From positions 6,293 to 70,292 of the forward strand of contig CAZHNM010000011.1 in assembly GCA_964533855.1 (NCBI GenBank): a stretch of DNA of 64,000 nucleotides, written 5' to 3'. Made by a program: the position numbers and the translations under genes. The notes under the pieces were generated by a model. The model was given only the letters and a program-made list of their open reading frames with translations. It did no database searches and was not told the origin of the DNA. Shown piece after piece: positions 20,713 to 42,296 of this stretch. The DNA is from an uncultured Brevinematales bacterium (GTDB taxonomy: Bacteria; Spirochaetota; Brevinematia; Brevinematales; JAOACQ01). Positions within the stretch are counted from its first letter, which is position 1, and each line of letters starts with the position of its first letter.

Positions 20713-20733
20713 CCTGTCAGGCTGTATGCGCGC

Positions 20734-20850
20734 TTTCACCTGCGTGGGATTAATAGCCTGTAACGGCAGGCAGCCTAACAGGCCGGGTTATCCCGCGCAG
20801 TTTCACTTGCGTGGGATTAATAGCCTGTAACGGCAGGCAGCCTAACAGGC
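20734..20850. repeat. Two direct copies (period 67 bp) of a 50-bp hairpin-containing element between convergent genes
   Basis: tttcacCtgcgtgggattaatagcctgtaacggcaggcagcctaacaggc at 20734-20783 and again at 20801-20850, with 1 mismatch. Each copy contains GCCTGT...ACAGGC. A reduced version (aatagcctgtcaggc) spans the upstream stop codon at 20708-20722. Confidence 0.85.
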
Positions 20851-26614: not shown

Positions 26615-29600
26615 ATGGAATTCAGATCAGGCGACGAATCTGCGGTTTATTCTATCAACACCCCGATGATGGTGGAAGCCCCGGCGGGGAGCGGTAAAAC
26701 GACACTGCTTGTGGATAAGTATATAGCTATGCTTATCTACCTGACTGCTTTCCGGAATAAAAGCGCCTTCGACGCCGTGAAGGAAATAACGGCCCTGACG
26801 TTTACCAGGAAGGCTGCTGAAGAAATGAAGGACAGGATAAGGAAAAAGATAGGGGAAAATTTTACTCCGGCCTACCTTGATTATGCCGTCGGTATGATAA
26901 ATATTCATGAAACGGGAGGCTCTCCCGTTCCGTCAGAACCGGCCGGCATGACGGCTGCAATTCTTGCGCAGAAGGAAACGCTTTCAGGCGCCATTTCTTC
27001 GGCTTCCATCTCGACAATCCACTCTTTCGCGTTAAATATACTCAAAACCCATCCCGTAGAAACCATGCTCGATCCTGCTTCGTCTCCCCGCGGCGAAGAA
27101 ATATCCGGCGGCGATGTTTTTATTACCGCCAGGGACGCCCTTTATTCCTCCCTGAGAAAGCAGATAGACACCGGCAGCCCCGATCTTTCGGCCCTTATCG
27201 GGATCTTAGGGTTTGAGAAAACGGAAGAAATGCTTGAAGCCCTTCTGGTGGCCTCCGATTCATACGGTTATAACGCCGTCATGGAGATGGCTGCCGCAGG
27301 AGGCTACCTCGAATATAAAGATGGAATAAGCGAACGGGAATGGCTGTCGAAAAAGGTGAAGCCTGAACTCATGTCCCTTCTTTCAGGCCTCGCGGCCGTG
27401 AGGCCTGACGTCGGTAAGACAGGTCTTCCCGCCCTTGAAAAGACTATACAGAAGATAGAATCCGCAATCCTGAAAGACAGCGCACCTGATTTTTTCCATG
27501 CCGATTTTTATTACCCCGGCCGGAGCGGACCGGTAAAAACGGTTTCGGATGCCCTTTACGCGAGGGTCTATTCGGAAATGCACAGGTACGTTTTCCAGCA
27601 CCTGTGGAAGGTGTTCCGGCATGTTTTGGCCGGATACGGGAACCTGAAGAGGGAAAGAAAGGAGATCAGCTTCAGCGATATAGAGCTCATCCTTCTCGAG
27701 ACGCTCAAGAAGGATAGGATTTTTACTGCGGACGTTAAAAAAAACAAGAGCTATATCCTGATCGATGAATACCAGGATACAAGCGATGTTCAAAAAGAGA
27801 TTTTCGATGCCCTGATCTATGATGAAAAAGGCGGATTATCAATGATCCCCTTTATAGTGGGCGACCCGAAACAGTCTATTTACGGATTCAGGAACGCCAA
27901 TATTGAGATATTCGGGAAGACGAAGCAGGAATTATTAAAATTCCGGGAAAAGTATCAAACTCCGGTTTACCGCGAACTTGACAGGAATTTCAGGTCAGGC
28001 AAAAAACTTCTTGATGATTTTAACGAGATATTCGCCGATGTTTTTAATAATGAAAAAACGGAATACAGGCCGTCCGTGACCGCGGGCCCGGCCTGCTGCA
28101 GCGCCGGTACTGCCGGGACTGGCAGCATGGGTCCGCAGGGCGTTTATTTTGTCCGTTCAGAAGAAAGCCATGCCGATGAAATGATGGCTTCCGCCAGCCG
28201 TAAGGCGGCCTGTATCATTGCCGGTCTCGTCGGTTCTCACGGATACAGGCCCGGAGAAATATTGGTGCTCGTCCGCAAGAAGACCAGGCTGCCCCTTCTC
28301 CGTGAATGCTTCGATGACATACTCGGCCGGAGAGGGATACCCTATTTTCATGTCGACAGTTCGAACATCCTCGATACAAAGGAAATACAGGACATCATAA
28401 TATACCTCCAGGCCCTTGAAAACCCGCACAGCAATTATTATTTTCTTCCCCTCCTGAAGTCGCCGTTCTTCAGAAAGAGCGATCCTGAGATCATTTCCTT
28501 CCTGAGGGATGGCCAGAGCCTTTACGATGTTCTCAATTCAGCCGGAGCTTCAGCCGAAATGGATCTCTTCAACCGTATAAGGCTGAAAAAGAACCGCATC
28601 AGCATTTCCGACCTCGCCGGAGAAATAATCGAGAGAAGCGGGTATTTCTCGTTTTTAAGCTCCCTTCCTTGTAAAAAAGAGGCTACCACGAACGTTCTTG
28701 TCTTTACCGATTACCTGCGCAGATTGCAGGAAATGGAGATGTTCAATCTCACCGATCTTCTTTATTACATTCAGGAATACGGCGTGTCTCTTTCGAAGCC
28801 CCGGGTAATAGGCGAAAAAAGCGATGTCGTCAGGGTAATGACAGTCCATTCTTCAAAGGGCCTTGAATCGAGGGCTGTTATCTATCTTGCTTCATCTCCC
28901 GGCGAAGGTGATCCCGGCGCTGTAATATTTTCGGGGAGCGGATCGAAAGCCGGGATGGGAATGAAACTTGTTAAACCGGACACTAATTATTTCGCTCTTG
29001 CCGAAGATTTGAAGGATGCCGGGGCCAGGGAGGAAAAACGCCTTGCCTATGTTACTTTCACGAGGGCAAGGGAGCTCTTTTACTACATAGGCATTGACGG
29101 AAATGACGGATGGAAATCTTTTATCAATACAGACAAGGTCTTTGCCGCTAAAAGATGCGCTGTCATCGATGAGATCCTCCAGGATCCGGTCCTTCTCAAA
29201 GACGATAAAGAGACCGCCGTCCGGGCGGAAAAACAGTACAGGCTTCTCAAGAAAAAAACTGTTCAGGAGGATTATTCCTCCTTTCCGCGTGTTATAACTG
29301 TGACCCAGCTGCTCGATATGGAATTCCTTGAAAAAGCCTTCAAAATGAGATATATAGAAAAGTCCTTTCCAGTCGATGAAGCGCTCAGGGAGATAGCTTC
29401 TTCAGAAGAAATTACAGCCCGGGGAGCCGCCGCAGCCGAAGAAGGGACTTTTCTTCACAGGATATTTCAATCGGCTTCGAAAGAAAATTACAGGGAATTT
29501 ATTGACTCGGCCCTCTCTATGGAAAGCGGCGGGCTTGAAAAGGACAGGAATAAAATTATCGAAGCGGCAGGAAACTTTTACGGGAGCGGATTTTACAGCA

Positions 29601-29980
29601 AATATTACTGCGAAGGGTTCGAGCGCAAAACGGAATGGGAGATCAACTATAACTTCATGTTCGGGCAAAGGCCGGTCCTGATCAAGGCCGTGCTCGACCT
29701 GTACCTTCGGGGAAAGGATGGAGCGGGAATTATTGCCGATTTTAAGCTCAAATATAAGCCGGAGAGCGCGAGGTATGCAAGACAGCTCAACTATTACGCA
29801 TATTTTTTAAACGAGCTCGGCTATCCCGCAGACGAGCTTTATATTTACGATATCGGCGGGGGAGGGGAAGTCGCTGTTCCGAAAGAAACAGGTTCCATGG
29901 ATGAAATAATCCGTAAAAATCTCGAGCGCATCCGTGATGTTTACAAGATGTCTTTGTCCGGAAATATAATAACAATATAA
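26615..29980 (+). CDS. AddA-like UvrD/PcrA superfamily-1 helicase fused to a C-terminal PD-(D/E)xK nuclease
   Basis: Walker A APAGSGKTTL. SF1 motifs TFTRKAAEEM, ILIDEYQDTS, VGDPKQSIYGFRNA, VMTVHSSKGLE and YVTFTRARE. The C-terminal nuclease pattern is GTFLHRIFQ ... DLYLR...IIADFKLK ... QLNYYAYFL. 1121 aa. Confidence 0.85.
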   Translation: MEFRSGDESAVYSINTPMMVEAPAGSGKTTLLVDKYIAMLIYLTAFRNKSAFDAVKEITALTFTRKAAEEMKDRIRKKIGENFTPAYLDYAVGMINIHETGGSPVPSEPAGMTAAILAQKETLSGAISSASISTIHSFALNILKTHPVETMLDPASSPRGEEISGGDVFITARDALYSSLRKQIDTGSPDLSALIGILGFEKTEEMLEALLVASDSYGYNAVMEMAAAGGYLEYKDGISEREWLSKKVKPELMSLLSGLAAVRPDVGKTGLPALEKTIQKIESAILKDSAPDFFHADFYYPGRSGPVKTVSDALYARVYSEMHRYVFQHLWKVFRHVLAGYGNLKRERKEISFSDIELILLETLKKDRIFTADVKKNKSYILIDEYQDTSDVQKEIFDALIYDEKGGLSMIPFIVGDPKQSIYGFRNANIEIFGKTKQELLKFREKYQTPVYRELDRNFRSGKKLLDDFNEIFADVFNNEKTEYRPSVTAGPACCSAGTAGTGSMGPQGVYFVRSEESHADEMMASASRKAACIIAGLVGSHGYRPGEILVLVRKKTRLPLLRECFDDILGRRGIPYFHVDSSNILDTKEIQDIIIYLQALENPHSNYYFLPLLKSPFFRKSDPEIISFLRDGQSLYDVLNSAGASAEMDLFNRIRLKKNRISISDLAGEIIERSGYFSFLSSLPCKKEATTNVLVFTDYLRRLQEMEMFNLTDLLYYIQEYGVSLSKPRVIGEKSDVVRVMTVHSSKGLESRAVIYLASSPGEGDPGAVIFSGSGSKAGMGMKLVKPDTNYFALAEDLKDAGAREEKRLAYVTFTRARELFYYIGIDGNDGWKSFINTDKVFAAKRCAVIDEILQDPVLLKDDKETAVRAEKQYRLLKKKTVQEDYSSFPRVITVTQLLDMEFLEKAFKMRYIEKSFPVDEALREIASSEEITARGAAAAEEGTFLHRIFQSASKENYREFIDSALSMESGGLEKDRNKIIEAAGNFYGSGFYSKYYCEGFERKTEWEINYNFMFGQRPVLIKAVLDLYLRGKDGAGIIADFKLKYKPESARYARQLNYYAYFLNELGYPADELYIYDIGGGGEVAVPKETGSMDEIIRKNLERIRDVYKMSLSGNIITI

Positions 29981-29982
29981 TG

Positions 29983-30011
29983 TTGACAAAACGCCGTTTC
30001 GGATGTAAAAT
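29983..30011 (+). promoter_or_regulatory. Sigma70-type promoter between the helicase and the TrwB-like ATPase gene
   Basis: TTGACA (29983-88), 17-nt spacer, TAAAAT (30006-11), 20 nt upstream of ATG 30032. Confidence 0.55.
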
Positions 30012-30031
30012 TTCCTTATCCGGGGTGGCGT

Positions 30032-31369
30032 ATGGACAACAACGGGTTATTATACCGCGAACAATGGGTCAGGGGGACCCGTTTTATTTCCGAAGATGAT
30101 TACAATGAGCGTGTCCGGAGGGATATGAAAGCTTCAGGCCTGAAGGAACGCGCATTAATGATAGGCAGCTGCATGCTTGCCGCCGCCGCCGAGACCGAAC
30201 ATGTCTTTATAATCGGAAAACCCGGGGTCGGAAAATCCGTTCTCGCTTATTCCATAGTCGAACAGCTCATCGATAACGGAAGGAAAGCTGTGGTCTACGA
30301 TTTCAAAGGAGATTTCCTCTCGAAATTTTACGATGAAAAACATGACCTGATTTTTAATCCCCTCGACGAACGTTCTTTAAAATGGAACATAATCGATGAA
30401 ATCACCGGCGCAGGGGACTGCCTGAAAGTTTCCGCCGCCGCCAAAAGGATCTGCCATTCTCTCATACCGGAACCGCCCGAGGGAGGGAATGAAAAATTCT
30501 TCCGAGACGGGGCAAGGGCCGTTCTCAAGAGCATTTTTGAATATCTGATAAATAATTCTTCCCCGGAAGGATCCGGCAACAGGGGCCTGCTGGACCTGAT
30601 AAGCTCCCGGGCCGATGATTTGCTGCCGATAGTAATGTCTGTAAGCCCGATAGCCGCCAATTTCATTTCAATGCCCGGCTCAAACCAGACGGCTGGAGTG
30701 CTCGCTGTATTGTCCCAGTTTACGGAATCCCTTTTATGCATGAATTATCAGGATGGAAATTTCACGGTAAAAGACTGGATTTGCGACGGGAAACCCGGGA
30801 TTTTATATGTGACGGGCTTCGCCGACGTCAGGGACACCCTGAGGCCGGTCCTGTCCCTGCTCATCGATACGATCGCCTCCAGTCTTTTATCGCTGCCGGA
30901 TTCCCTGGACAGGAGGCTGTTTTTTATTCTTGACGAATTCGCAACCCTCCAGCGGCTCAATTCCCTGGTGGAATTGCTGACCCTTTCCAGGTCCAAGGGT
31001 GGGTCTGTCTGGCTGGCTACGCAGGATCTTTCACAGGTTGAGAATTTATACGGGACCCTGAAGAATTCCATAGTAAATGCCTGCGGGACAAAGGTTATTT
31101 TCGCAGTGGCCGATCCGAAAGACGCCGGGGAGTTTTCGGATTTCATATCCGAGGCCGAGTATCTTCTCGAAACGGTGCAGGACAGCGGAACGCCGGTAAA
31201 GGGCGGAGGCATATCGGACACCGACGGGCTGTCGAGGAACTACAGCAGGACTCTTGTTACAAAAAACGTCGTGCTCCCCTCGAATATAATGAATATGCCG
31301 AAATTCGGCTTTATTTTGAGGTCTTACCCTTATTCTTTCGTCAAATCGGGCTTGAGGCCGCCCCCGTGA
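30032..31369 (+). CDS. TrwB/TraD/VirD4-like (type IV coupling protein family, FtsK-HerA superfamily) ATPase lacking the N-terminal TM anchor
   Basis: VRGTRFIS...ETEHVFIIGKPGVGKSV (Walker A at 30215-30238), then VVYDFKGDFLSKFYDEKHDLIFNPLDERSLKWNI (TrwB_AAD_bind-like), and Walker B/sensor region RRLFFILDEFATLQRLNSLVELLTLSRSKGGSVWLATQDLSQVENLYG. No hydrophobic N-terminus. Confidence 0.7.
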   Translation: MDNNGLLYREQWVRGTRFISEDDYNERVRRDMKASGLKERALMIGSCMLAAAAETEHVFIIGKPGVGKSVLAYSIVEQLIDNGRKAVVYDFKGDFLSKFYDEKHDLIFNPLDERSLKWNIIDEITGAGDCLKVSAAAKRICHSLIPEPPEGGNEKFFRDGARAVLKSIFEYLINNSSPEGSGNRGLLDLISSRADDLLPIVMSVSPIAANFISMPGSNQTAGVLAVLSQFTESLLCMNYQDGNFTVKDWICDGKPGILYVTGFADVRDTLRPVLSLLIDTIASSLLSLPDSLDRRLFFILDEFATLQRLNSLVELLTLSRSKGGSVWLATQDLSQVENLYGTLKNSIVNACGTKVIFAVADPKDAGEFSDFISEAEYLLETVQDSGTPVKGGGISDTDGLSRNYSRTLVTKNVVLPSNIMNMPKFGFILRSYPYSFVKSGLRPPP

Positions 31370-32298
31370 AAATGCTGCATGCCATGACTTATTTCATTGA
31401 TAAGGCCGGCGCCGCCATCCATATATCCGGCGCAATTTATCTGGATCTGCTGAACAGGTCAATCCTTGCCGCCGTATCGGCAGCCATTTTTCTGTTTATC
31501 CAGAATTTCCAGTCGATAATGCGCAGAATGATGAGGAACACCCTCGACAGCTACCGTTATTCCGGGCTTCTCGCCTTCAAGGCCGTCTGGGATGAAATAG
31601 AAAATAAAACGGAAAGAGGGAAGCTCGGCCAGTATGCTCTCATCTGCATGGCAATAGATATTTTTGCGAGTTTCTCTCTCTTCCCGGTTTTAAGCACGGC
31701 GGGCGCATTCATGGCTGCGCCTTTCTTTTCCCTCTCCGCTTTCGCGATAGAGCTTCACCTGGTCTTTTCCTGGTTCTACAACAGCAAGCCTTTTCCCGTG
31801 GAAAGGAACAAAAACATCTCGAGGCCTGTTCTTGCCGTATTTTCCTTATCCTGCGCATTGTCAATAACTGTCTCAGGATGTTTTTACTTTAGCGAAGTCA
31901 AACGGCTGCCATGGCTTGAATACGGGCTTATTCTTGCGATAGTCAGCGCGGCGCTAACTCTTGTCTTGCTTTCGGGCTCCCTGTTCAATCCCGGAAGGGG
32001 GCTCAGGTTTGTAAAAAGAATAAATTTCGGCTTCGCGGTATCTTTTTATATCGTACCGGGCTTAACGGGTTTTCTTATGACGAATTCTTTGATTTTTGCA
32101 CGGGTTTTTATCCCGGCAGACAGGGTCTTGCATGAATTCATCAAAATACCTGAAATTATGCTGCCTGTCATATCGGTCTTGATGATAATGCTCTATAACG
32201 CATCGGGCAGCTACCTCGGGCACAGGCTTGTCGCGGCGGCGCCCTCCCGGGTTAAAACCTCCGAAGATCCGGCGGATCCGTTCAGGGGGAGCGAATAA
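31366..32298 (+). CDS. Polytopic membrane protein of unknown function, translationally coupled to the TrwB-like ATPase
   Basis: GTG start overlaps the ATPase TGA (GTGA at 31366-31369). 310 aa with about 7-8 hydrophobic helices. No recognisable family motif. Confidence 0.6.
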   Translation: MKMLHAMTYFIDKAGAAIHISGAIYLDLLNRSILAAVSAAIFLFIQNFQSIMRRMMRNTLDSYRYSGLLAFKAVWDEIENKTERGKLGQYALICMAIDIFASFSLFPVLSTAGAFMAAPFFSLSAFAIELHLVFSWFYNSKPFPVERNKNISRPVLAVFSLSCALSITVSGCFYFSEVKRLPWLEYGLILAIVSAALTLVLLSGSLFNPGRGLRFVKRINFGFAVSFYIVPGLTGFLMTNSLIFARVFIPADRVLHEFIKIPEIMLPVISVLMIMLYNASGSYLGHRLVAAAPSRVKTSEDPADPFRGSE

Positions 32299-32316
32299 GC
32301 GGTTTTAATGTCAGCC

Positions 32317-32368
32317 GGTAAAATCCAACTTTTCGGCGGATTTACAATCATGATATTTTTTGTATAAT
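32317..32368 (+). promoter_or_regulatory. Promoter plus operator-like inverted repeat (copy 1 of a shared element)
   Basis: AAATCC (32321-26)-N11-GGATTT (32338-43) overlaps the -35 TTTACA (32341-46). 16-nt spacer, then TATAAT (32363-68). 33/36 nt identical to 35660-35695. Confidence 0.6.
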
Positions 32369-32403
32369 ATCTTGCATTTTAAAACATAGAGGGCGGTGAT
32401 CGG

Positions 32404-33042
32404 ATGTCCTTAAGCAACGGATGGATTGTATATACCGATTGGACAAAACCTGCGGGACGGTTTATAAAACGATTCGCGACAACATGGATTGTTCCCCCTC
32501 CGCCGTTAAAAAAATCGGGCCAAAAAGTTTATCTTTTCAATGGAATTCAAAGCCCTGATAATATGATCTTACAGCCGGTGCTTCAGTGGGGAAATTCTGC
32601 TGTCGGAGGCGGTGATTTCTGGTCGGTCTCATGCTGGTACGCCGGCGGAGGCGGAGGGCCGGCAAATTACTCCAGGCTTGTGCCTGTAAATTCTTCACAA
32701 TCTCTCACGGGAGTCATCGAATTAGTTGATTGCGACAATATCGGGTTTTCCCCTGTTTTCAGCTATATGTGTTCTTTCGAAGGAATCGACGATACTAAAT
32801 TGATAAAGAATAGGATTCAAGAACTATCATTATGTTATGAAGTTCTTGAAGCATACGGATTGCAGGCTAAGGATAATTATCCTGCTTCTGATAAAACCGT
32901 CATGGGAGGCATTGAAATAATGCTTGACAACGGCGAAGCGGTTTTAAACTGGAAGGTGAATAATCGCATAACCGATTGCGGCCAGCATATTGATGTTGTA
33001 AGTAATAATTCACCTGGCGGCGAGGTTGATATATTTTATTGA
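32404..33042 (+). CDS. Leaderless eqolisin (peptidase G1)-like beta-sandwich protein
   Basis: Its pattern parallels scytalidoglutamic-peptidase-type proteins: SNGW..., ATTWIVPPPP (cf. sAtw.VP), VYLFNGIQ...MILQPVLQWG (cf. WVGIDG...ILQTG with the catalytic Gln), WSVSCWY, and CYEVLEAY...YP...V (cf. AEWIVED with the catalytic Glu). This is motif-level only. Confidence 0.4.
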   Translation: MSLSNGWIVYTDWTKPAGRFIKRFATTWIVPPPPLKKSGQKVYLFNGIQSPDNMILQPVLQWGNSAVGGGDFWSVSCWYAGGGGGPANYSRLVPVNSSQSLTGVIELVDCDNIGFSPVFSYMCSFEGIDDTKLIKNRIQELSLCYEVLEAYGLQAKDNYPASDKTVMGGIEIMLDNGEAVLNWKVNNRITDCGQHIDVVSNNSPGGEVDIFY

Positions 33043-33081
33043 AAACCGATGAAAACCATAAATATATCGGGAGGTATTTTT

Positions 33082-33582
33082 ATGAAAAGGTTATTGTCCG
33101 CTATGTTTTTAGTTGCATTTCTTTTTGGTATCGCAGGATCTTTCTACGGCATTCTGAACAGCGACAGTTCTCCCTTGATCCCCAATCCAAGCATACCTGC
33201 CGCCGCTCCGATAATTACCGTTCCCGTGCTTGATACCTCTTTAGGATTGGTAGGCCTTTCATATCTTCCTAATGTGAATGGAAGTCCTCAATTTTTCCCC
33301 AATTTCGGGCCTTTCTTCAGGTTATCCAGGAACTTTATCGGTTACCAGCAGTCGGACGGTAGCTGGAAATCTTATGTCGATATCGGGTGTATATTATTTG
33401 CCGACGGAACATCAAATCCGGCTATAAGCCAGGATACCATATACAATCTGGGCGCGGGTATCGGACTGGGCTTCCTTGACGATGCCGTTACGGTTTCCTT
33501 CGCTTTTATCTGGCTTTTTAATGGAAGCGTCAATATTCCCGCTTATTCTATTATCATAACCAGCACAGCATATAAATTTTAG
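33082..33582 (+). CDS. Small secreted, possibly outer-membrane beta-barrel-like protein
   Basis: Signal peptide MKRLLSAMFLVAFLFGIAGSFYG (internal ATG 33082). Alternating hydrophobic pattern and a C-terminal aromatic residue (TSTAYKF). Confidence 0.45.
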   Translation: MKRLLSAMFLVAFLFGIAGSFYGILNSDSSPLIPNPSIPAAAPIITVPVLDTSLGLVGLSYLPNVNGSPQFFPNFGPFFRLSRNFIGYQQSDGSWKSYVDIGCILFADGTSNPAISQDTIYNLGAGIGLGFLDDAVTVSFAFIWLFNGSVNIPAYSIIITSTAYKF

Positions 33583-33596
33583 CGGGGGGGTGAAAT

Positions 33597-34472
33597 ATGT
33601 TCGGATCCGTAATTCTTGAAATCGCGATCGGGGTAATTTTTATTTATCTGGCGCTAAGCCTGCTCTGCACTGCTATTAACGAAGGAATATCGGGCTTCTT
33701 TTCAATGAGGTCCAGGACTTTAAGCATTTGGCTGGAGAATTTTCTGGGCGACAGAGATTTAATTGCTAATTTCTACAATAACCCGCTTATCAGAAACCTT
33801 GTGCAAAAACCCGGCAAAAAACCGTCCTATATCCCTTCGAGTATCTTTTCGGCGACAATTTTAGATAATATCCTTAAAGTATATACCACGATTCCCGGCG
33901 TTACAGCCGACCTGGTAAATGCAATCGCAACATCTCCCATTCCTCAGAATCTTAAAGATACTCTTAGCACGCTTGCCAGGACCGCCGAGAATAAAATCGA
34001 AAACCTTAAAACAAGCCTTGAAAAATATTTCGACGACGCAATGGACAGGGTTTCAGGCTGGTATAAAAGGTATGTGAATAATATCATACTTGCAATTTCA
34101 ATAGTTATTTGCGGATCGATGAATATCGATACGATCGATATGGTAAAGGAACTAAGCAGCAATTCTAATATGCGCATTGCCTTATCGAGTTATGCGGTCC
34201 AGTCAGTGAGTACGGTGACAAATCAAAGCCAGGCTGTCGGACCGGTTTTGGATGTAATAAACGGCGTTGTTACAAATACTCAAATTCCATTCGGCTGGAA
34301 TAATTTATCAGCTGAAATACCGGCTAGATCGAACAATGAATGCTGGCTCTGGATTGAAAAAATTCTAGGCATCATCGTTTCGGCGATTGCCGTTTCGTTA
34401 GGCTCGCCGTTCTGGTTCAATATGCTGGAGCAGGCGATCAAATTAGCCGGTATCGAACCTAAAAAGGCTTAA
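33597..34472 (+). CDS. Integral membrane protein of unknown function
   Basis: 291 aa. N-terminal TM (VILEIAIGVIFIYLALSLLCTAI), central TM (IILAISIVICGSM) and C-terminal TM (ILGIIVSAIAVSLGSPFWF). GGGGG-rich RBS region upstream. Confidence 0.55.
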   Translation: MFGSVILEIAIGVIFIYLALSLLCTAINEGISGFFSMRSRTLSIWLENFLGDRDLIANFYNNPLIRNLVQKPGKKPSYIPSSIFSATILDNILKVYTTIPGVTADLVNAIATSPIPQNLKDTLSTLARTAENKIENLKTSLEKYFDDAMDRVSGWYKRYVNNIILAISIVICGSMNIDTIDMVKELSSNSNMRIALSSYAVQSVSTVTNQSQAVGPVLDVINGVVTNTQIPFGWNNLSAEIPARSNNECWLWIEKILGIIVSAIAVSLGSPFWFNMLEQAIKLAGIEPKKA

Positions 34473-34491
34473 AAAGACATAAGGAGTTTTT

Positions 34492-34578
34492 ATGCCGGAA
34501 ATTAAATTCTGGACTCTGAACGCCTCGGCACGGTGCATGACTGGCGGAACGGGTAATTTGTATAACCCTCAAAAGTAA
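34492..34578 (+). CDS. Candidate 28-aa small ORF (MPEIKFWTLNASARCMTGGTGNLYNPQK)
   Basis: Found by hand. Strong TAAGGAG RBS (34480-86) lies 5 nt before ATG 34492, 19 nt after the preceding stop. There is no homology evidence. Confidence 0.25.
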   Translation: MPEIKFWTLNASARCMTGGTGNLYNPQK

Positions 34579-34666
34579 AACAAGTTACAATTCTGATGAT
34601 CAAACACCGAAAATAACTTAGGGTAAGAGCAACCGCGGTCCTTTTTGAAATTACCCCGAGGGCATT

Positions 34667-35602
34667 TTGCAAAATATTATCCTCTTTTATTACATTTTAG
34701 CTTTTTCGATAGGTGTAGCCTCGATGCTTTTTGTCATGGTCGCCTGGATGAAATTTAAAAATTCCGTTTTAAAATATTATTTTATTTTTCTTCTTCTGTT
34801 CACGGTTTATCTCGTTATTAACCTTGTCAGGATTTATATAACTGAAATCTTGAATGAAAAAGAAATATGGATTAATATTTTTTCTTTTTCGGTATACTTC
34901 ATCTGGTATCCTTTCTTCCTTTACTTTGTTCCATACTTCTTCCATAAGCTGACCGAAGTTGATTATTCCGCGGCTAAAAAGGCCGCTTTTGCCGTCCTTG
35001 GGATCAGCTATCCTTTAATGCTGATTACGGCATTTTTAATCGGGAAAAATCCTGAGAACATCTATAGTATTATGAGGTTTGAAATGCGGACCACCGGCGG
35101 TATTCTTATCCTTTTTATAATCGCTTATATTACCATATTTATGATAAGAAGTTATATCCGCCTGGAAAACGAGATGGTAAAGAAAATACTAAAAATTTTC
35201 GCATTAATTACAATCGTTTTTATTCCCGGTTTTATCCTCGATTCAAAAATCGATTATTTCCAGTATCAGATAAAGATTTTTCCCGTCGGTTTTTTCTTTT
35301 CAGTAATCTATTATCTGGTCTTGAATGTAATCAGCATTTTCCTGCTCGCAAGGTATTTTTTATTAAAGATCAATCTTCTGGAAAACAAGCTCATAACCGA
35401 TAAATTTATTTCTAAATTTTCTATAACGGTAAGGGAAAAAGAGATCATGCTCCTCCTGATGGAAGGCTGTACTTATGATCAAATCAGCGCTAAATTATTC
35501 ATAGCGGTATCGACTGTTAAAAGCCATATCCATAATGTTTATCAAAAAACAGGCTCAAAGACCAAGACGCAATTCAAACAAATCATCTCGGGTGAATTCT
35601 GA
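34667..35602 (+). CDS. Membrane-embedded (about 7 TM) LuxR/FixJ-type HTH transcriptional regulator
   Basis: C-terminal LuxR-type HTH (TVREKEIMLLLMEGCTYDQISAKLFIAVSTVKSHIHNVYQKTGS), preceded by about 240 aa of hydrophobic helices. TTG start in the track. Confidence 0.75.
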   Translation: MQNIILFYYILAFSIGVASMLFVMVAWMKFKNSVLKYYFIFLLLFTVYLVINLVRIYITEILNEKEIWINIFSFSVYFIWYPFFLYFVPYFFHKLTEVDYSAAKKAAFAVLGISYPLMLITAFLIGKNPENIYSIMRFEMRTTGGILILFIIAYITIFMIRSYIRLENEMVKKILKIFALITIVFIPGFILDSKIDYFQYQIKIFPVGFFFSVIYYLVLNVISIFLLARYFLLKINLLENKLITDKFISKFSITVREKEIMLLLMEGCTYDQISAKLFIAVSTVKSHIHNVYQKTGSKTKTQFKQIISGEF

Positions 35603-35659
35603 AAAACTATTGATCCAAAACCATTAACTTTTCCTCAATCTATTGCAGCTGATGACATT

Positions 35660-35711
35660 GGGAAAATCCAACTTTTTGGTGGATTTACAATCATGCCGCC
35701 GCTTCCATAAT
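35660..35711 (+). promoter_or_regulatory. Promoter plus operator-like inverted repeat (copy 2 of the shared element)
   Basis: AAATCC (35664-69)-N11-GGATTT (35681-86) overlaps TTTACA (35684-89). 16-nt spacer, then CATAAT (35706-11). Partial third copy at 35721-30 (tttacaatca) and 35735-46 (gggaaaaatcca). Confidence 0.55.
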
Positions 35712-35791
35712 ATGATGCTTTTTACAATCAGGTCGGGAAAAATCCAGGAAAACCTGCTTGAAAAGTCAGCTGAAAATCGGAGGCCAATATT

Positions 35792-35941
35792 ATGAAAAGA
35801 CAAAAAAAAGCAGCGGTTGTCAGAGAAGGTTTTATGAAATCCGGACTTCTTAAAGAAGTCTCTTTCGGAAAAATTTTAGAGCCGATGAGTTTCTGTGTAA
35901 AATCCATAAATAAGAGAGTATTTCCCGTTCATCTCGGTTAA
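35792..35941 (+). CDS. Candidate 49-aa small ORF abutting the next gene
   Basis: Found by hand. GGAGG (35779-83) lies 8 nt before ATG 35792. Stop TAA at 35939-41 is immediately followed by ATG 35942. The peptide is basic: MKRQKKAAVVREGFMKSGLLKEV... Confidence 0.35.
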   Translation: MKRQKKAAVVREGFMKSGLLKEVSFGKILEPMSFCVKSINKRVFPVHLG

Positions 35942-37117
35942 ATGGTTAAGGAAAGGACCAATCCCTTTAAAATTCCTGGAATCCTTCCCAATTTCCTGTT
36001 TGAATTGAAAAAAAGTTTTATAAGTCTGATTTTGAGAAAATTAATATTTATTTACGGATTATTTTATTATTTAGTCTATAAAATGAAAACATTCCCGGTT
36101 ATTAAAACGCCGATCCAGTTTCCCATTGAAAAAATAATATATTTCTCTTTAATCCGGAATATGATGGGCACTATTCTCGGAGAAGGGGAAACAAAGGATA
36201 GCATAAAAAGAATGTGCGGGGTTTTCCTTTATTATCAAATTATTGAAAATAGCCTTTTAGACCTTGGAATCTACTGCCCTATATTATTCCTTAAATATAT
36301 CTTTTTTGTCTACCCCGAAAAAAAGCGCATGCTTTTGTCTCCGGGGTCCGGCAGGAAAACATTTTTATTTCATAATTTTATAGGCTCGAAATTCGGAGTC
36401 ATTTTACAAATTATTTCTTTTGCCGAAAAAGGGGAAAACGCATTGGTGCTTGTAGACACCGCGGCTCTATCTTCAGCGAGAATGATCTTAGAGAAGGTAT
36501 GCCCCGATGCGATCATATACGGCAATGGAAGAATCGATTTACGGATGGGATATTTCAGAAATTATATAAAAAACGACGATTGCTCGAAATCTATCATAAC
36601 CTTTATAGATATCCGGGATATCGGGAATTACCGGATCATTTTAAAAAAATTGAAAGAGCCGTCTTTTAATTGCGTTCTAATTCCCGAAACTCCCCTGCTG
36701 CGGCCGTCTCAAAACTTTTTTTCGGACCTTCTTGGAGCGCAAATAGCTTTTCCCGGCGCCATAAAAAAATTCATCCGGTTTTCCGATTCGATCGTTTCAA
36801 TAATCCCGGATTTCGGGAAAGGGCTGAATAATATTCAATTTCACTCTGAAATCGTAGAAAGATTTCATGATGATGAGACTGTCCTGAATCATATCGTGAA
36901 AAATTATGAAAGATTCGTTTTCATCAAGCCATATTTATTCATACCGTTTGAATATAATGAAATCTGGAAAGGACTTTTCAGCAGTCAAAATCTCGATAAG
37001 GATACCGTTGTCCAAACCCTGGTATGGGGGAAGAAGTGCCTTCTGTTATTATCGGACGGTAAAATGTTTTCCTGCCTGAAGAAAGACCTGAAATCCATCC
37101 TGAATTCCAATAGCTGA
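35942..37117 (+). CDS. Hypothetical protein (N-terminal hydrophobic region, AT-rich gene)
   Basis: 391-aa ORF with no competing long ORF. N-terminal TM-like segment (LIFIYGLFYYLVY). No recognisable motif. Confidence 0.5.
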   Translation: MVKERTNPFKIPGILPNFLFELKKSFISLILRKLIFIYGLFYYLVYKMKTFPVIKTPIQFPIEKIIYFSLIRNMMGTILGEGETKDSIKRMCGVFLYYQIIENSLLDLGIYCPILFLKYIFFVYPEKKRMLLSPGSGRKTFLFHNFIGSKFGVILQIISFAEKGENALVLVDTAALSSARMILEKVCPDAIIYGNGRIDLRMGYFRNYIKNDDCSKSIITFIDIRDIGNYRIILKKLKEPSFNCVLIPETPLLRPSQNFFSDLLGAQIAFPGAIKKFIRFSDSIVSIIPDFGKGLNNIQFHSEIVERFHDDETVLNHIVKNYERFVFIKPYLFIPFEYNEIWKGLFSSQNLDKDTVVQTLVWGKKCLLLLSDGKMFSCLKKDLKSILNSNS

Positions 37118-37146
37118 TAAAAATCTTTGTTTAAAAGAGGCTGCAA

Positions 37147-37875
37147 ATGGACGGTAAAACTTTGAAAGTGCTGATATACACACAATCGGACACCTTTGCC
37201 GATGCGCTATTTCATATGGGAATAACTTTATACCGTTCAAAAAATCCCGGTGACCTGATAGATAAAATTCAGAAGTATTTTCCTGAAATAGTCGTTTTAG
37301 ATTTCACTAATGAAGATTCTACTGCCACATTTAAATTAGTTAATCAAATAAAAGACCACCCCGATGAAAAAATCAAAAAAACGGCGATCATTCTTCTCTT
37401 CGGATCTATCGATATCGGGAATATTTCTTCGGCAATTCAGGCCGGCGTAGCAGGTTTTATAAAAATTAATGCCGCGGCAGATCTTATATATGATTATATT
37501 ACGACTCTTTATCAAAAGGTCAGGGATGTTCCGCCCGAAAGAAAATATGTCAGGATTCAAATCGACCCTAAAGAGAGGATCGGCGTCAGATTCTGGTCCC
37601 CGGTAAATTTAATTCTTATTGTAGGACGGATTAAAGATATAAGCTTCGGCGGGATCGCGGTGGAATTAGTCGGGACATATCCCGCGGATTCATTGGCAAT
37701 AGGGACAGAATTAAAATCAATGCAGTTTGTTTTAGACGGAAAATATGTATTTATCGATGGGGTAGTGGCGGCCTGCCTGGAAAAATTTTGCGCCATACAA
37801 TTCAGGGACATAACTCCGGAAATAAAGGAAATAATTTCCCGGTATATTTTTGAAAAAATATGCCTTTACGTATAA
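37147..37875 (+). CDS. Receiver-like domain fused to a PilZ (c-di-GMP-binding) domain
   Basis: N-terminal CheY-like pattern (LKVLIYTQSD...EIVVLDFTNED...). C-terminal PilZ motifs RKYVRIQ (RxxxR) and GRIKDISFGGIAV (D/NxSxxG). Confidence 0.7.
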   Translation: MDGKTLKVLIYTQSDTFADALFHMGITLYRSKNPGDLIDKIQKYFPEIVVLDFTNEDSTATFKLVNQIKDHPDEKIKKTAIILLFGSIDIGNISSAIQAGVAGFIKINAAADLIYDYITTLYQKVRDVPPERKYVRIQIDPKERIGVRFWSPVNLILIVGRIKDISFGGIAVELVGTYPADSLAIGTELKSMQFVLDGKYVFIDGVVAACLEKFCAIQFRDITPEIKEIISRYIFEKICLYV

Positions 37876-37906
37876 GCGGAAGGCTGGTTGCAGAGCTTTA
37901 AAAGTG

Positions 37907-38281
37907 TTATTTTTTTTTCCTGTTTTTCCAGTAGAGGTCTTCTTCGCGGAGATGATCGATAAGCACATTGAGCGGCCACCTGATATTCTCCGCAGTCAGC
38001 GCGCAGAATATCGGACGCCTGATTTCCGCCCCTCTAATCAGCTGAAGGGTTTTATGTATATCGTCGTCGCCGAACGATAGAAAGATCAGGATGGGAGGTT
38101 CGGCCTGTTCATAATCCCAATCAGTGCGCGCGAGGCAGTCTTTTAGGGTCAATTCCTCCCTGCCTGAAGCGCTCAGAAGCGCGACGTCCTTCTTAAGTCC
38201 GTCCCTGATAATACTATGAAGGCTTTCAGCGTCGTCCTTATTGTATCCGTAGAGCATAATGCCCAATTCATTTTTTAACAT
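37907..38281 (-). CDS. Hypothetical protein, DUF3783-like
   Basis: 124 aa. The pattern IMLYGYNKDDAESL...PILIFLSFGDDDIHKTLQLIRGAEIRRPIFCALTAENIRWPLNVLIDHLREE resembles DUF3783 members, recalled from memory only. Confidence 0.4.
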   Translation of the reverse strand: MLKNELGIMLYGYNKDDAESLHSIIRDGLKKDVALLSASGREELTLKDCLARTDWDYEQAEPPILIFLSFGDDDIHKTLQLIRGAEIRRPIFCALTAENIRWPLNVLIDHLREEDLYWKNRKKK

Positions 38282-38430
38282 ATAAAATTATTCTGGAAAG
38301 CTTGAAAAAAGTCAATTGAAATCCGAAATTGTAAATCCGGAATTGCTTCGGAGTGAGAGTTTCATCATCCCTTTTGACATTTTTACCTGCGGTTCTTAAA
38401 ATCAAGGCCATAGAAATCTACGGAGATATT

Positions 38431-39729
38431 ATGCGGGGACTTATCGATTGGATGGTGAAACGCAAAACCGCCCTTTTCCTGCTGCTTGGGATTTTCTTCG
38501 TCCTGGCCCTTGCCGGGAGGCTGATCGTCACTAAAAGCGTTATCGGCGGGGATGCGGTCAATTACTACAGCACCGTTCATGCATTTGTGATGAGCCACAA
38601 ATTAGACCTGAAGGCGGAGCTTGAGCATTATTATAACGAAAGATCGGGCTTCACAGGTAACAGGAAGCTCAGCGGCCCTCCCCATCCATCGTCCACGGGA
38701 TTGGTCCCTATTAATTACCCGATCGGACTGGCCCTAATGCTTGTCCCCTTCTTTTTTCTCGGCCACCTCGTTACCCTGGCGCTCAGCCCTTTCATACCCG
38801 GCCTCTCTCCTGACGGATACGGTCCGGTTTACCAGCTGCTGACCGGGCTTGGGAGCATGCTTTATGCATTCCTGGGCCTTTTTGCGATTTACCGTTTCGG
38901 CAGGAAACGTTACGCCGAAACATCCGTATTGCTCGCTGTAATGCTAACCTGCCTGGGTACCCCGCTGGTTTATTATATGACTATGGAACCTCTTTTATCC
39001 CATACAATGTCGGTTTTCAGCATATCCGTCTTCCTGGCCGTCTGGTATTCTAACAGGAACGATATGAAGCTTCAGCACTGGGTTATCCTGGGCCTCCTGG
39101 GCGGACTTGCCGGAATTACAAGATACCAGGACGGGCTGATAATAGTCATCCCCCCGGTCTATGCCCTGGTCAGTTTTATTAAAACGCGGCAGTGGAAGAA
39201 CCTTCAAATTCCAGGAGGGCTCGTATATGTTCTCATATTCGCGGCAGTCTATTCCCTCCAGCTCATTGTTAATAAAATAGATTACGGTTCTTTTTTTACA
39301 ACGAGTTATGCCTCCAATAAGGAAGGTTTTATATACTGGGCAAATCCGAAAATATTGTTCAGCCTGTTTTCACCCTATTGCGGGCTCTTAACCAGATCGC
39401 CCGTTGTATTGTTCTCTTTTATCGGGCTTTATTATTTATTTAAGAAAGACATGACCGCGGCCATCCTGCTTGCAGGTTTCTTCTTAGCCCAGCTCTACCT
39501 TGTCAGCAGCTGGTGGATACCATACCAGGGCGACACTTTCGGAAACCGTATGCTGCTCAATTGCGTGTTTATCTTTGCCGTCGGGATGATGGAGTTTTTT
39601 GACAGGATACATGAAAACAGGAAAGTCTTTAACCTGTGCCTGTCCTTAGCCCTTCTCATGGTGATTATCAATCTTGCCCTTGTCCCCCTGTATTGTTTCC
39701 GGCTGATCGGGAATTCCTACGCCCGCTAA
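38431..39729 (+). CDS. GT-C-type (ArnT/PMT-like) polytopic membrane glycosyltransferase candidate
   Basis: About 11-12 hydrophobic helices. TM1 (ALFLLLGIFFVLALAGRL) is followed by a loop with GGDAVNYYS. ATG 38431 is preferred over the GTG at 38353. Confidence 0.6.
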   Translation: MRGLIDWMVKRKTALFLLLGIFFVLALAGRLIVTKSVIGGDAVNYYSTVHAFVMSHKLDLKAELEHYYNERSGFTGNRKLSGPPHPSSTGLVPINYPIGLALMLVPFFFLGHLVTLALSPFIPGLSPDGYGPVYQLLTGLGSMLYAFLGLFAIYRFGRKRYAETSVLLAVMLTCLGTPLVYYMTMEPLLSHTMSVFSISVFLAVWYSNRNDMKLQHWVILGLLGGLAGITRYQDGLIIVIPPVYALVSFIKTRQWKNLQIPGGLVYVLIFAAVYSLQLIVNKIDYGSFFTTSYASNKEGFIYWANPKILFSLFSPYCGLLTRSPVVLFSFIGLYYLFKKDMTAAILLAGFFLAQLYLVSSWWIPYQGDTFGNRMLLNCVFIFAVGMMEFFDRIHENRKVFNLCLSLALLMVIINLALVPLYCFRLIGNSYAR

Positions 39730-39751: not shown

Positions 39752-40858
39752 ATGAAATTATCTATCGTGATCCCCGTTTATAATGAAAAAAATACCATAG
39801 AAGAGATCCTCAGGACGGTGGAGAAAGCTCCCCTGCCCGAAGGAATAAAGGAAAGAGAGATAATCGTTGTGGACGACTGTTCCAGGGACGGGACAAGGGA
39901 CTATCTCTCGACCCTGAAAAAGGCTCCCTTCAAAGTCCTGTTCCATGAGAAAAACACGGGCAAGGGCGGCGCTTTAAGAACGGGTTTCAGGAACGCTACG
40001 GGAGACATCGTCCTCATTCAGGATGCGGACCTGGAATACGATCCCAACGAGTACCCGAAGCTTTTGAAGCCGATCATAGAGGACAGGGCGGATGTTGTTT
40101 ACGGTTCGAGGTTTGTGGGCGACGAACCCCATCGCGTTCTTTATTTCTGGCATACTGTCGCCAATCAGCTCCTGACCCTGTTATCGAATATGTTCTCGGA
40201 TTTAAACCTGACGGATATGGAAACCTGCTACAAGGTATTCCGGAAAAATATAATAGACAGGTTCGACATAGAAGAAAACCGCTTCGGTTTCGAACCGGAA
40301 ATAACGGCGAAGATCGGAGAGCTTTCAAGGGAGGAAGACTGCCGCGTATATGAAGTAGGCATTTCTTATTACGGAAGGACCTACAAGGAAGGCAAAAAGA
40401 TAGGGATGAAAGACGCTTTCCGCACCTTCTGGTGCATCTTCAGCTACAATACATCCCATTTCGCCCACCTTGTGAAATACGGTTTTAACGGCCTGCTTGT
40501 GGCCCTGTCCCAGTTCGCGGTTATTGTCCTTCTCATAGACGGTTTAGGGTTCAAAACCGCTTTTCTTCAAAACATATCGAACGCCGTCAGCATCGAGGTT
40601 TCCATCATTGCAGGTTTTATACTGCATTCTATAGTGACATGGCGCTACAGGTATAAAAATGCCGGGGAGTTCATCACCAAATGCCTGCAGTTCCATCTTA
40701 TAACAGGCATTTCTTTTGTCGCAAGAGTGCTTTTGTTCAGTCTCCTTCTTAATATGGGAATGCACTACAAGCTCAATACGCTCATAGGCATAGGCGTGGC
40801 GATCCTGATGAATTTCATCGGGTATGACTTCCTGGTGTTTAAAAAGAAAACTATCTGA
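39752..40858 (+). CDS. Family-2 glycosyltransferase (polyprenyl-phosphate sugar synthase type) fused to a C-terminal GtrA-like 4-TM domain
   Basis: LSIVIPVYNEKNTIEEIL, VVDDCSRDGT and LIQDADLEYDP (DxD) are DPM1/GtrB-like. The C-terminal about 130 aa have 4 TM helices with the GtrA-like pattern (HLVKYGFNGLLVALSQFAV...). Confidence 0.85.
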   Translation: MKLSIVIPVYNEKNTIEEILRTVEKAPLPEGIKEREIIVVDDCSRDGTRDYLSTLKKAPFKVLFHEKNTGKGGALRTGFRNATGDIVLIQDADLEYDPNEYPKLLKPIIEDRADVVYGSRFVGDEPHRVLYFWHTVANQLLTLLSNMFSDLNLTDMETCYKVFRKNIIDRFDIEENRFGFEPEITAKIGELSREEDCRVYEVGISYYGRTYKEGKKIGMKDAFRTFWCIFSYNTSHFAHLVKYGFNGLLVALSQFAVIVLLIDGLGFKTAFLQNISNAVSIEVSIIAGFILHSIVTWRYRYKNAGEFITKCLQFHLITGISFVARVLLFSLLLNMGMHYKLNTLIGIGVAILMNFIGYDFLVFKKKTI

Positions 40859-42296
40859 GCCTGTAAAGCCCCATCCTGCCGTTGCCGAAGATTAGACGGG
40901 CCGGGCCAGTGTTCGTGTGATTGCCTTCTTTATCGATGATGTATATCAGAGCCGCCCCGGCTTTTTCATTCCACTGCCTGTGCAGTATCCTCCCCGCGAT
41001 AGCCTGGTACAGATAATGGTCGTCTCCCGCCCTGACCTCGAAAGGCCTGCCCGCGGCGTCATCGAGCATTGCATTTACGTAACCGTACCTCATCCCGATG
41101 CTTATAGGCGTTACAAGGTATGCGAAATAATAAAGCGTAAGGGCCGATCCTCCAATGATGAATGCTATCGACGCTCTCAGCAGCAGTCTGGCGTTTAAAC
41201 GCCTCAGAAGGACAAGCAAAGGGAAGAATGAAAAAGCGTAAGCCGAATAATAGTAGCTCGTAGGATAGGACGGCACCCTGAAGATCGTGAAGGAGAGGAT
41301 AAGGCTTGCCATTGTAAGAAAATATATTGTCAGAAGTCGCCTGTCCATATCATCCGGCAGACCTTTCCTTAAGAGGGCGGTGACGCAGAAAACCAGCGAC
41401 CATACCGCCAGGCCCAGGCTTGCGAGGTAAACGGCGGCCAGGGGCCATAAGGCATACCAGGGCAGCATGGAGAGGAAGCGCAGTCCGTCCGAAATATATC
41501 CGCTGATCATAAAATCGAGGCTCGGGAAAAGCAGCAGGTAAGAGAGGGCAGGGAAAGAAGCCCCTTTCTGTAAGGGTCCCGAAGAGAGCATGCCTAAAGT
41601 ATTGCTGAAATGGTTCCCGATCTCGCTGACAAGGTAAGGCACGTAAAGCAGGGCGGCCCCTGTTATCCCCAGCCAGAAAAAAGATCTGTTCCTGCCCCTG
41701 TAAAAAAATATAAAATATGCGGCCAATGTCAGCGGGATATAGAAGATGCTCGGAATGTGCACCTGCGCCATCAGCGCCGCGAGGGGAAGGATCAAAAATA
41801 ATAGCAGGGGTTTTTCATTGCCCGAAAAGACCTCCATGAGAATGGACGCGAGCACCATGGAAAGCATTATCTCGTAGCAGCCGTTTGTCATGCCCGCTTC
41901 GAAGAGGACAAACCTGGTGCTGAAAAGCAGGAGAGAGGCTATTGTAAAGGCGGCCCATTTTCCGTAATGCCTTTTTATCGTAAACAGGAAAAGAGCTGCA
42001 GCGCCGAGGATAAGAACAGCCGAGTAGATGTAAAACACCTGCGGAGAGGCGTTCAGCAGGGCGGGTATGGAAAGGAGCAGGTCATATCCGCCCCCGGGTA
42101 TTTTGACTGGCGACGAGCTCATATGGGGCCCCATAACCGGGAACCTCCCGGACGCGTAAATGTCCCTGGCCTCGAGAATATTGTCGACGTCATCCGACGA
42201 AAAATAAGCGTTGAACCATGTATAAGACCTTGTCCCCACGACAGCCGCAGCGAGCAGCAGGATCATGAGGAGCTCTTTTTTGAAAGTTTTTTTCAT
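40851..42296 (-). CDS. GT-C-like polytopic membrane protein, paralog A, with a C-terminal soluble domain
   Basis: TM1, then the acidic loop FSSDDVDNILEARDIY. At least 10 TM helices. About half the residues are identical by eye to 43699..45156. C-terminal GRPFEVR...NEKAGAALIYIIDK...NTGPARLIFGNGRMGLYRLR. Confidence 0.6.
   Translation of the reverse strand: MKKTFKKELLMILLLAAAVVGTRSYTWFNAYFSSDDVDNILEARDIYASGRFPVMGPHMSSSPVKIPGGGYDLLLSIPALLNASPQVFYIYSAVLILGAAALFLFTIKRHYGKWAAFTIASLLLFSTRFVLFEAGMTNGCYEIMLSMVLASILMEVFSGNEKPLLLFLILPLAALMAQVHIPSIFYIPLTLAAYFIFFYRGRNRSFFWLGITGAALLYVPYLVSEIGNHFSNTLGMLSSGPLQKGASFPALSYLLLFPSLDFMISGYISDGLRFLSMLPWYALWPLAAVYLASLGLAVWSLVFCVTALLRKGLPDDMDRRLLTIYFLTMASLILSFTIFRVPSYPTSYYYSAYAFSFFPLLVLLRRLNARLLLRASIAFIIGGSALTLYYFAYLVTPISIGMRYGYVNAMLDDAAGRPFEVRAGDDHYLYQAIAGRILHRQWNEKAGAALIYIIDKEGNHTNTGPARLIFGNGRMGLYRLR

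Follow-up and report, generated by a model that had tools for sequence, protein, structure and literature searches.

We analysed a 64-kb window (the whole stretch of 64,000 nucleotides (nt) from contig CAZHNM010000011.1) of a spirochaete from the order Brevinematales, phylum Spirochaetota, in which a promoter element occurs twice around the gene for a seven-transmembrane LuxR-type regulator (7TM-LuxR). The gene order begins with a UvrD/AddA-like helicase-nuclease, a TraD/TrwB-like ATPase and a 310-amino-acid (aa) membrane protein, which are followed by the first copy of the element (site A). Next come unit A, which encodes proteins of 212, 177 and 291 aa and ends in a 28-aa open reading frame (ORF), the regulator gene, and the second copy of the element (site B). 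Unit B comprises a 49-aa ORF, a 391-aa protein and a 242-aa REC-like/PilZ protein, and is followed by a convergent DUF3783 gene. The sites, promoters and genes are given here in order of position; contigs L121, L122, L128 and L131, which carry related loci, are introduced below.

32320-32350, plus strand: site A, 31-nt core AAAATCCAACTTTTCGGCGGATTTACAATCA, which holds the AAATCC-N11-GGATTT dyad and the -35 hexamer
32341-32368, plus strand: promoter A, TTTACA-16-TATAAT, with 11/12 consensus matches
32404-33042, plus strand: unit A gene 1, encoding a beta-sandwich protein of 212 aa with a predicted glutamic-peptidase-like fold, without a signal peptide and with no Pfam match
33049-33582, plus strand: unit A gene 2, encoding a protein of 177 aa whose N-terminal segment is hydrophobic and signal-like; it has no family match and is present in L121/L122
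33597-34472, plus strand: unit A gene 3, encoding a membrane protein of 291 aa with about three hydrophobic segments and no family match
34492-34578, plus strand: 28-aa ORF MPEIKFWTLNASARCMTGGTGNLYNPQK with an AAGGAG Shine-Dalgarno sequence, which ends unit A and whose status as a gene is uncertain
34667-35602, plus strand: 7TM-LuxR regulator of 311 aa, in which residues 2-240 form seven transmembrane helices and a short linker leads to a GerE-type helix-turn-helix (HTH) domain (residues 245-310)
35663-35693, plus strand: site B, 31-nt core AAAATCCAACTTTTTGGTGGATTTACAATCA, 31/31 identical in relative L128
35684-35711, plus strand: promoter B, TTTACA-16-CATAAT, with 10/12 consensus matches
35721-35746, plus strand: partial everted copy of the element, TTTACAATCA ... 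GGGAAAAATCCA, 3' of the promoter B -10 hexamer at about +3 to +29
35792-35941, plus strand: unit B gene 1, an ORF of 49 aa that has GGAGG as its Shine-Dalgarno sequence; a 59-aa ORF has the same position in L131
35942-37117, plus strand: unit B gene 2, a 391-aa protein with no family match, the regulator's conserved partner
37147-37875, plus strand: unit B gene 3, encoding a protein of 242 aa in which a REC-like N-terminal part is combined with a PilZ domain (Pfam PilZ, E = 5.9e-7)

The two 36-nt elements at 32317-32352 and 35660-35695 are identical at 33/36 positions, and both the coordinates and the identity reproduce those of a preliminary description of this DNA. That description also ended unit A at 34578, which stands with the correction that the final ORF of the unit is the 28-aa one at 34492-34578. 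The 31-nt core of the element, AAAATCCAACTTTTYGGYGGATTTACAATCA, occurs exactly twice in the window, as direct repeats at a distance of 3343 bp, with unit A and the regulator gene between them. The AAATCC-N11-GGATTT dyad is found in both core copies, and both copies sit in near-consensus promoters directly 5' of same-strand genes with Shine-Dalgarno sequences. The hexamer pairs previously proposed for these promoters were recovered at 32341-32368 and 35684-35711, where they rank best and sixth-best among promoter-like sites in 31000-39000. Similarity between the two copies resumes at the -10 block as ATAATAT..T.C.TTT, in agreement with the earlier claim that it continues past the -10 hexamer. 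Primary promoters of spirochaetes consist of TTGACN, a 16-18 bp spacer and TANNNT (bioRxiv 10.64898/2026.02.09.704077), and since the host is a spirochaete, a sigma70-type reading of promoters A and B is legitimate. A sigma54 reading of the element, based on the spacing of GG and GC, was checked by eye and rejected as a poor fit.

With transcription starts predicted at about 32376 (A) and about 35718 (B), the core spans approximately -56 to -26 and the dyad is centred at approximately -44. The element is readable as an imperfect palindrome of about 25-31 bp, AAAATCCAAC-N5-GGYGGATTTA (right half GGTGGATTTA; in scan form, AAAATCCAAC-N5-GGYGGATTTACAAT). Its strongest arms are AAATCC and GGATTT, which lie 17 bp apart from centre to centre, or about 1.6 helical turns. 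These arms are present as first described, but the 11-nt 'spacer' of the dyad is conserved equally with them, which indicates that the recognition unit is larger than the 6-nt arms alone. The rearranged partial copy reported at 35721-35746 also exists. It is largely conserved in L128, including the stretch GGTCGGGAAAAATCCAGGAAAACC, and may hold extra half-sites.

Conservation of the element was assessed in two short contigs from other samples that are about 86% identical to the window, one running from the TraD-like gene through unit A (L121/L122) and the other holding the regulator gene and site B (L128). At site A, 30/31 core positions are identical between the window and L121, with 52% identity in the 21-nt left flank and 50% in the -35/-10 spacer. 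The site B core is identical throughout in L128 (31/31), with 69% identity in the left flank and 67% in the -35/-10 spacer. The -10 blocks are also kept, at 10/11 positions for site A in L121 and 11/11 for site B in L128. When the sites were pooled, 61/62 core positions were identical, compared to 67/106 positions in the left flanks and -35/-10 spacers (Fisher p = 1.4e-8). In both species, core position 15 has a C in the site A copy and a T in that of site B, which indicates that the copies diverged before the species split and were conserved independently, and which fits neither gene conversion nor recent duplication. These patterns of substitution indicate that both copies of the element are held independently by selection.

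Only sites A and B were recovered in the window with a degenerate 33-mer at up to three mismatches, where none were expected from 100 dinucleotide shuffles. When the 31-nt core was scanned with many mismatches allowed, the next-best window site had nine mismatches, equal to shuffled sequence. Two public collections, genome_contigs and metagenome_contigs, were scanned with AAAATCCA-N10-GGATTTACAA, which returned 57 and 55 chance-like singletons from unrelated taxa; these had at most 51/104 identity to the extended element, with the likeness limited to the fixed bases. No diverged copies of the element were present in 133 fetched loci (1.03 Mb in total), and the element was without a match in plasmid and phage searches. 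Within the sequence searched (the window, the public collections and the fetched loci), it is not a dispersed repeat or a miniature inverted-repeat transposable element (MITE). The preliminary description had named a dispersed repeat as one finding that would speak against shared control, and what was found instead is two copies in the window and chance singletons elsewhere.

One further partial occurrence in the window may be relevant. The exact 11-mer GGATTTACAAT, which comprises the right arm and the -35 hexamer, occurs a third time at 38338-38328 on the minus strand, where 0.04-0.07 extra exact copies are expected by chance. The corresponding feature is:

38315-38338, minus strand: candidate third site, GGATTTACAAT-ttc-GGATTTCAAT, which runs into the -35 of TTGACT-17-AATAAT, the promoter 5' of the minus-strand DUF3783 gene (37907-38281)

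Its register relative to the promoter is unlike that of sites A and B, and we treat it as a lead only for a third operator.

The gene at 34667-35602 had been described as encoding a membrane LuxR, an assignment that was borne out by several lines of evidence. The hydropathy profile has seven hydrophobic segments, and an AlphaFold2 model built on an alignment of 40 relatives (predicted local distance difference test score (pLDDT), 93; predicted template modelling score, 0.80) contains seven long helices, a short uncertain linker and a four-helix HTH. Four differences to L128 lie 5' of the first ATG and are all synonymous, which backs the TTG start at 34667. The HTH matches Pfam PF00196 (GerE; E = 1.2e-11, 44.5 bits compared to a cutoff of 23.5), with matches to HTH families only, and PF00196 is matched by 40/40 aligned family members. 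In the model, the HTH superposes on those of GerE, LiaR and NarL at 1.3-1.8 Å and, with DosR included, at 1.3-2.0 Å over 56-59 residues; the match to VpsT also lies within 1.3-2 Å. Structure comparison of the seven-helix part returned just generic, non-significant likeness to rhodopsins and G-protein-coupled receptors. No autoinducer-binding domain was detected with Pfam, and the N-terminal 240 residues are transmembrane helices in the model. As modelled, the protein is a transmembrane transcription regulator as this class is defined, having at least one transmembrane segment and a DNA-binding domain in one polypeptide.

The regulator belongs to a large family. A near-empty word-index search had suggested that it was an orphan, which was overturned by an exhaustive HMMER search that returned 468 representatives at E <= 1e-10, nearly all of them 300-320 aa in length and aligned end to end. 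One representative is annotated as coming from a Spirochaetota metagenome-assembled genome (MAG). The sensor domain of the family is without a Pfam model; the window regulator has no match to PF07695 (7TMR-DISM) at E <= 1, and 1/40 relatives matches it (E = 0.0038). In a literature search, no paper was found on a seven-helix LuxR family in spirochaetes. A terminator scan of 34472-35660, which takes in the end of unit A, the regulator gene and the approach to site B, listed no terminator-like site. In the leader of the regulator gene, the sequence GTTACAATTCTGATGATC at 34585-34602 resembles the TTTACAATCATGAT part of site A; this likeness may be due to chance, or it may be a weak half-site for autoregulation.

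In order to determine whether the association of regulator and element extends to relatives, we compared gene neighborhoods across family members. L128 keeps site B next to the regulator gene, and the recognition helix is retained as well. Homology between L128 and the window begins about 115 nt before the regulator start, inside the 3' end of the 28-aa ORF of the window, and this ORF is not retained 5' of the regulator in L128. The upstream gene there (L128 1-2062, compared to window 33597-34550) is a frameshifted ORF of about 530 aa. This stretch of about 115 nt is conserved, and may hold a promoter of the regulator's own.

A more distant family member (37% identical) is encoded on an 89.7-kb contig, L131, and is followed by a 59-aa ORF, a 382-aa protein and a REC-like protein. 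The 382-aa protein is 28% identical to the 391-aa protein of the window (E = 2e-38), for which a word-index homolog search was empty and which has its only known homolog in this L131 neighborhood. The 59-aa ORF and the 49-aa ORF of the window have no detectable sequence similarity. The third protein of unit B in the window contains the motifs RKYVR (RxxxR) and DISFGG (DxSxxG), and its similarity to REC domains is weak. The promoter between the L131 regulator gene and the genes that follow it is TTGACT-17-CATAAT, its -35 abutted by the repeated word AAAGTACT. This word has three occurrences in 17 kb of L131, all of them within the 40 nt at 8962-9001, compared to 0.42 expected. The recognition helix is STVKSHIHNVYQK in the window regulator and QTVKNHIYNIYQK in that of L131, a difference in line with the differing DNA words.

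Two other family members have different cargo. In L132, from the Spirochaetota MAG GCA_025457915.1, the gene for a 35%-identical 7TM-LuxR is separated from a FecR-domain gene by two tandem 23-nt units (9010-9055), each with a GGGGG-N5-CCCCC palindrome. These units are another candidate for a family-specific operator, and count indirectly in favor of pairing regulator and sites. In L133 (8001-9800), a 30%-identical 7TM-LuxR paralog is located directly 5' of a TTGACA-17-TATAAT promoter and a tRNA gene cluster. L133 comes from JGI sample 3300035696, the same sample as L129, which is 99.8% identical to the window. Judging by gene order, the link between regulator and unit B is conserved in a distant family member, and what ties the regulator to unit A is the shared element. 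The proposal that the two units form one regulon is partly supported, better for unit B, where the link is kept in L131 and, through site B, in L128, than for unit A, where it occurs only in the window genome.

The reading that we favor, with moderate confidence, is that the element is recognized by the 7TM-LuxR encoded between its two copies, which would thereby control both units. The 31-nt element would serve as a combined operator and promoter, with its palindrome taking in the -35 hexamer TTTACA. As a membrane-embedded one-component regulator, the protein would use its seven-helix domain to sense a membrane or extracytoplasmic cue that prompts binding, and a dimer would bind both copies through the C-terminal GerE-type HTH. 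The genes under common control would be those for the glutamic-peptidase-like protein, a putative secreted or outer-membrane protein, the membrane protein and the small ORF of unit A, together with those for the small ORF, the 391-aa protein and the REC-like/PilZ protein of unit B, the last of which is predicted to bind cyclic diguanylate (c-di-GMP). Promoter A probably drives the regulator gene as well, because no predicted terminator separates this gene from unit A, and this would create an autoregulatory loop. If the assignment of the regulator is right, we lean modestly toward activation over repression, since the position of the site matches that of class-II LuxR/TraR sites and the characterized transmembrane LuxRs are activators.

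Several observations weigh against this reading, some of them against the sign of control and others against the binder. Near-consensus hexamers suit repression as well as activation, and so does a conserved block that covers the whole -35 hexamer and 4 nt beyond, as well as the half-site-like sequences of site B at +3 to +29 that are conserved in L128. The dimer sites of NarL, DosR and ComA-type members of the LuxR/NarL family are typically narrower than the 17-bp arm spacing of the element. In L128, a different gene is found directly 5' of the regulator, which leaves the linkage of regulator and unit A to the window genome. The family members in L132 and L133 precede unrelated genes, and distant homologs of the 212-aa protein are found in unrelated neighborhoods and not beside 7TM-LuxRs. 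The count of element copies in the host genome covers 64 kb, plus the short contigs of relatives.

Some of these observations could also be explained if the element is a selected promoter module that is read by something else, either an unlinked transcription factor or RNA polymerase itself, by means of an UP-like or extended -35 element. In this case the position of the regulator would be coincidental for site A, and site B would be controlled through other bases. Such a reader would be in keeping with the equal conservation of the whole 31-nt block including the 'spacer', with an arm spacing that is atypical of LuxR-type dimers, and with the absence of the regulator-unit A linkage from L128. 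Spirochaetal RNA polymerase is also described as having unusual upstream-DNA behavior (bioRxiv 10.64898/2026.02.09.704077). A general polymerase determinant would be common, however, and the element is found at only two promoters in 64 kb. In L128, site B is still adjacent to the regulator gene, and the equivalent arrangement in L131 combines a different word with a different recognition helix. On balance we consider a reader other than the 7TM-LuxR unlikely, though it is the alternative to be taken most seriously.

It is much less likely that the two copies are a neutral by-product of rearrangement, that is, direct repeats left by duplication or insertion of a 3.3-kb segment (att-like or MITE-like) that merely carry a promoter. 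The 3343-bp spacing of direct repeats around unit A and the regulator, the TraD/TrwB-like gene just upstream and the differing context 5' of the regulator in L128 would all be compatible with such an event, but no integrase or transposase is found in or beside the 3.3-kb segment. In addition, purifying selection acts on the core of each site in the two species, against a background of decaying flanks. The site-specific C/T difference is older than the species split, and each copy keeps its register with a -10 hexamer and a start codon. The lack of plasmid or phage matches, and of further copies in the 1.03 Mb of fetched loci or the two public collections, also speaks against this reading. Least credible of all is a role at the RNA level, with read-through transcripts forming a hairpin (AAAUCCAAC / GGYGGAUUU) that would work as a terminator, as an attenuator or in RNA processing. 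The sequence does allow an imperfect inverted repeat of 9 bp around a 5-nt loop, and the upstream genes and sites are not separated by terminators. Against this, each copy has a different minimum-free-energy fold, none scores better than shuffled sequence (z = -0.6, -0.7, -1.8), a U-tract is lacking, the terminator scan does not list the element, the sole variable stem position changes from A-U to A.C without compensation, and there is no Rfam match at E <= 1.

The 212-aa protein of unit A has 53 homologs and no sequence-level match in Pfam or the PDB. Its AlphaFold2 model (pLDDT 94) is predicted to have the beta-sandwich fold of glutamic peptidases (G1 eqolisins or neprosin-like), with scytalidoglutamic peptidase, SCP-B, YncM and neprosin as the best fold matches. 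In a Foldseek comparison with the PDB, E-values were 6e-7 for 2ifw, 2e-6 for 1s2b and 1e-5 for neprosin, with template modelling scores of 0.58-0.67. Among 31 homologs, Q57 is invariant and E149 near-invariant, which makes the two residues candidates for a catalytic Gln/Glu dyad. Most of the homologs (P0018-P0069) carry 50-150 further residues at the N-terminus, which probably form a signal or pro-region. Neither the window protein nor its 86%-identical relative has this extension, and both begin at the conserved core. In L123, a homolog of this protein follows YcaO and amidohydrolase genes. A regulator-like gene beside a distant homolog, in L126, was considered as a transmembrane LuxR and rejected, as its product is soluble with repeated sigma70_r4 domains; it thus lends no support to a wider link between peptidase-like genes and LuxR regulators. 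PADLOC returned no match to defence families for any gene of unit A or unit B.

A more elaborate possibility is that the locus is a self-contained one-component peptide signaling circuit, which we regard as improbable. Promoter A would in this case drive a 28-aa secreted peptide, a glutamic-peptidase-like maturase, membrane or export proteins and the 7TM-LuxR as receptor. On sensing the matured peptide at the membrane, the receptor would act back on promoter A and also switch on unit B, where the PilZ protein would couple the decision to c-di-GMP. Such a circuit, if true, would be Agr-like logic compressed into a single receptor-regulator, and we know of no Agr-like system of this kind in the phylum.

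The surroundings of the locus have features of their own. The genes upstream of site A form a tight same-strand cluster (26615-32298) of the UvrD/AddA-like helicase-nuclease (1121 aa), the TraD/TrwB-like ATPase, which matches PADLOC mad8 (E = 2e-22), and the 310-aa polytopic membrane protein. The cluster is in a chromosomal context and is kept in relative L121, and could be a defence or DNA-translocation module. The product of 931-1938 (plus strand) matches HgcA, the corrinoid protein of mercury methylation, at 394 bits compared to a curated cutoff of 275, and by this match the Brevinematales MAG from which the window comes may be a mercury methylator. Directly past the stop codon of a gene for a periplasmic-binding/GGDEF protein (18397-20712), two tandem 56-nt units (20728-20850; period 67 nt) are 95% identical. 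Each contains inverted repeats of the AGCCTGT-N-ACAGGCT type and is without an Rfam match. The minus-strand neighbors 40851-42296 (about 480 aa) and 43699-45243 (514 aa) have about 74% nucleotide identity over long stretches (40855-41744 compared to 43706-44610), and are thus tandem paralogs.

The locus holds a compact (about 310 aa), confidently modelled seven-helix transmembrane LuxR from Spirochaetota, together with two, possibly three, sharply defined candidate operators and a conserved module of a small ORF, a protein of about 390 aa and a REC-like protein. A 31-bp probe and the 67-residue HTH would provide a test system for a family of hundreds that is without a Pfam sensor model or a known ligand or target. 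The locus overturns nothing, as what is proposed is a local regulon of a familiar logical type under an unstudied regulator family.

Among known systems, classical LuxR and TraR proteins share the GerE-type HTH, and their lux and tra boxes are palindromes of about 20 bp centred at -42.5, a position used by class-II LuxR-type activators. The dyad of the element likewise overlaps the -35 region, with its centre at about -44 from the predicted start. Unlike these systems, the window regulator has a seven-helix domain in place of the autoinducer-binding domain, and the 20-bp palindrome is replaced by 6-nt arms with an 11-nt spacer, 17 bp apart, in a 31-nt block within a near-consensus core promoter. 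One-component control of transcription from the membrane is shared with ToxR, CadC and TcpP. The well-studied members of that class are single-pass proteins with OmpR-type winged helices, whereas the window regulator is polytopic with a LuxR-type HTH. The 7TMR-DISM receptors (PF07695) also have a seven-helix sensor module fused to a cytoplasmic output domain. The window regulator differs from them in having no PF07695 match and no extracellular DISM domain, and in that its output is an HTH.

The closest parallel is to the transmembrane LuxR one-component regulators, a class recognized only recently and characterized only in Coriobacteriia, as proteins with 10-12 transmembrane helices (PMC9734109). 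DadR, HcdR and CadR of Eggerthella lenta belong to this class, and its characterized members are membrane-bound activators of adjacent genes, which has been proven for those with 12 helices (PMC9734109). Spirochaetota have been reported as enriched in transmembrane transcription regulators (survey PMC10269533). As in the DadR family, the window regulator combines a polytopic N-terminal membrane domain and a C-terminal LuxR/GerE HTH in a single polypeptide, is encoded beside its putative targets, and has many paralogs with different neighboring cargo. It differs from that family (10-12 helices, Coriobacteriia) in its seven helices and its occurrence in Spirochaetota, a comparison of architecture and host. 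The regulator is thus a seven-helix variant within a known class, that of the transmembrane LuxR one-component regulator with a local regulon.

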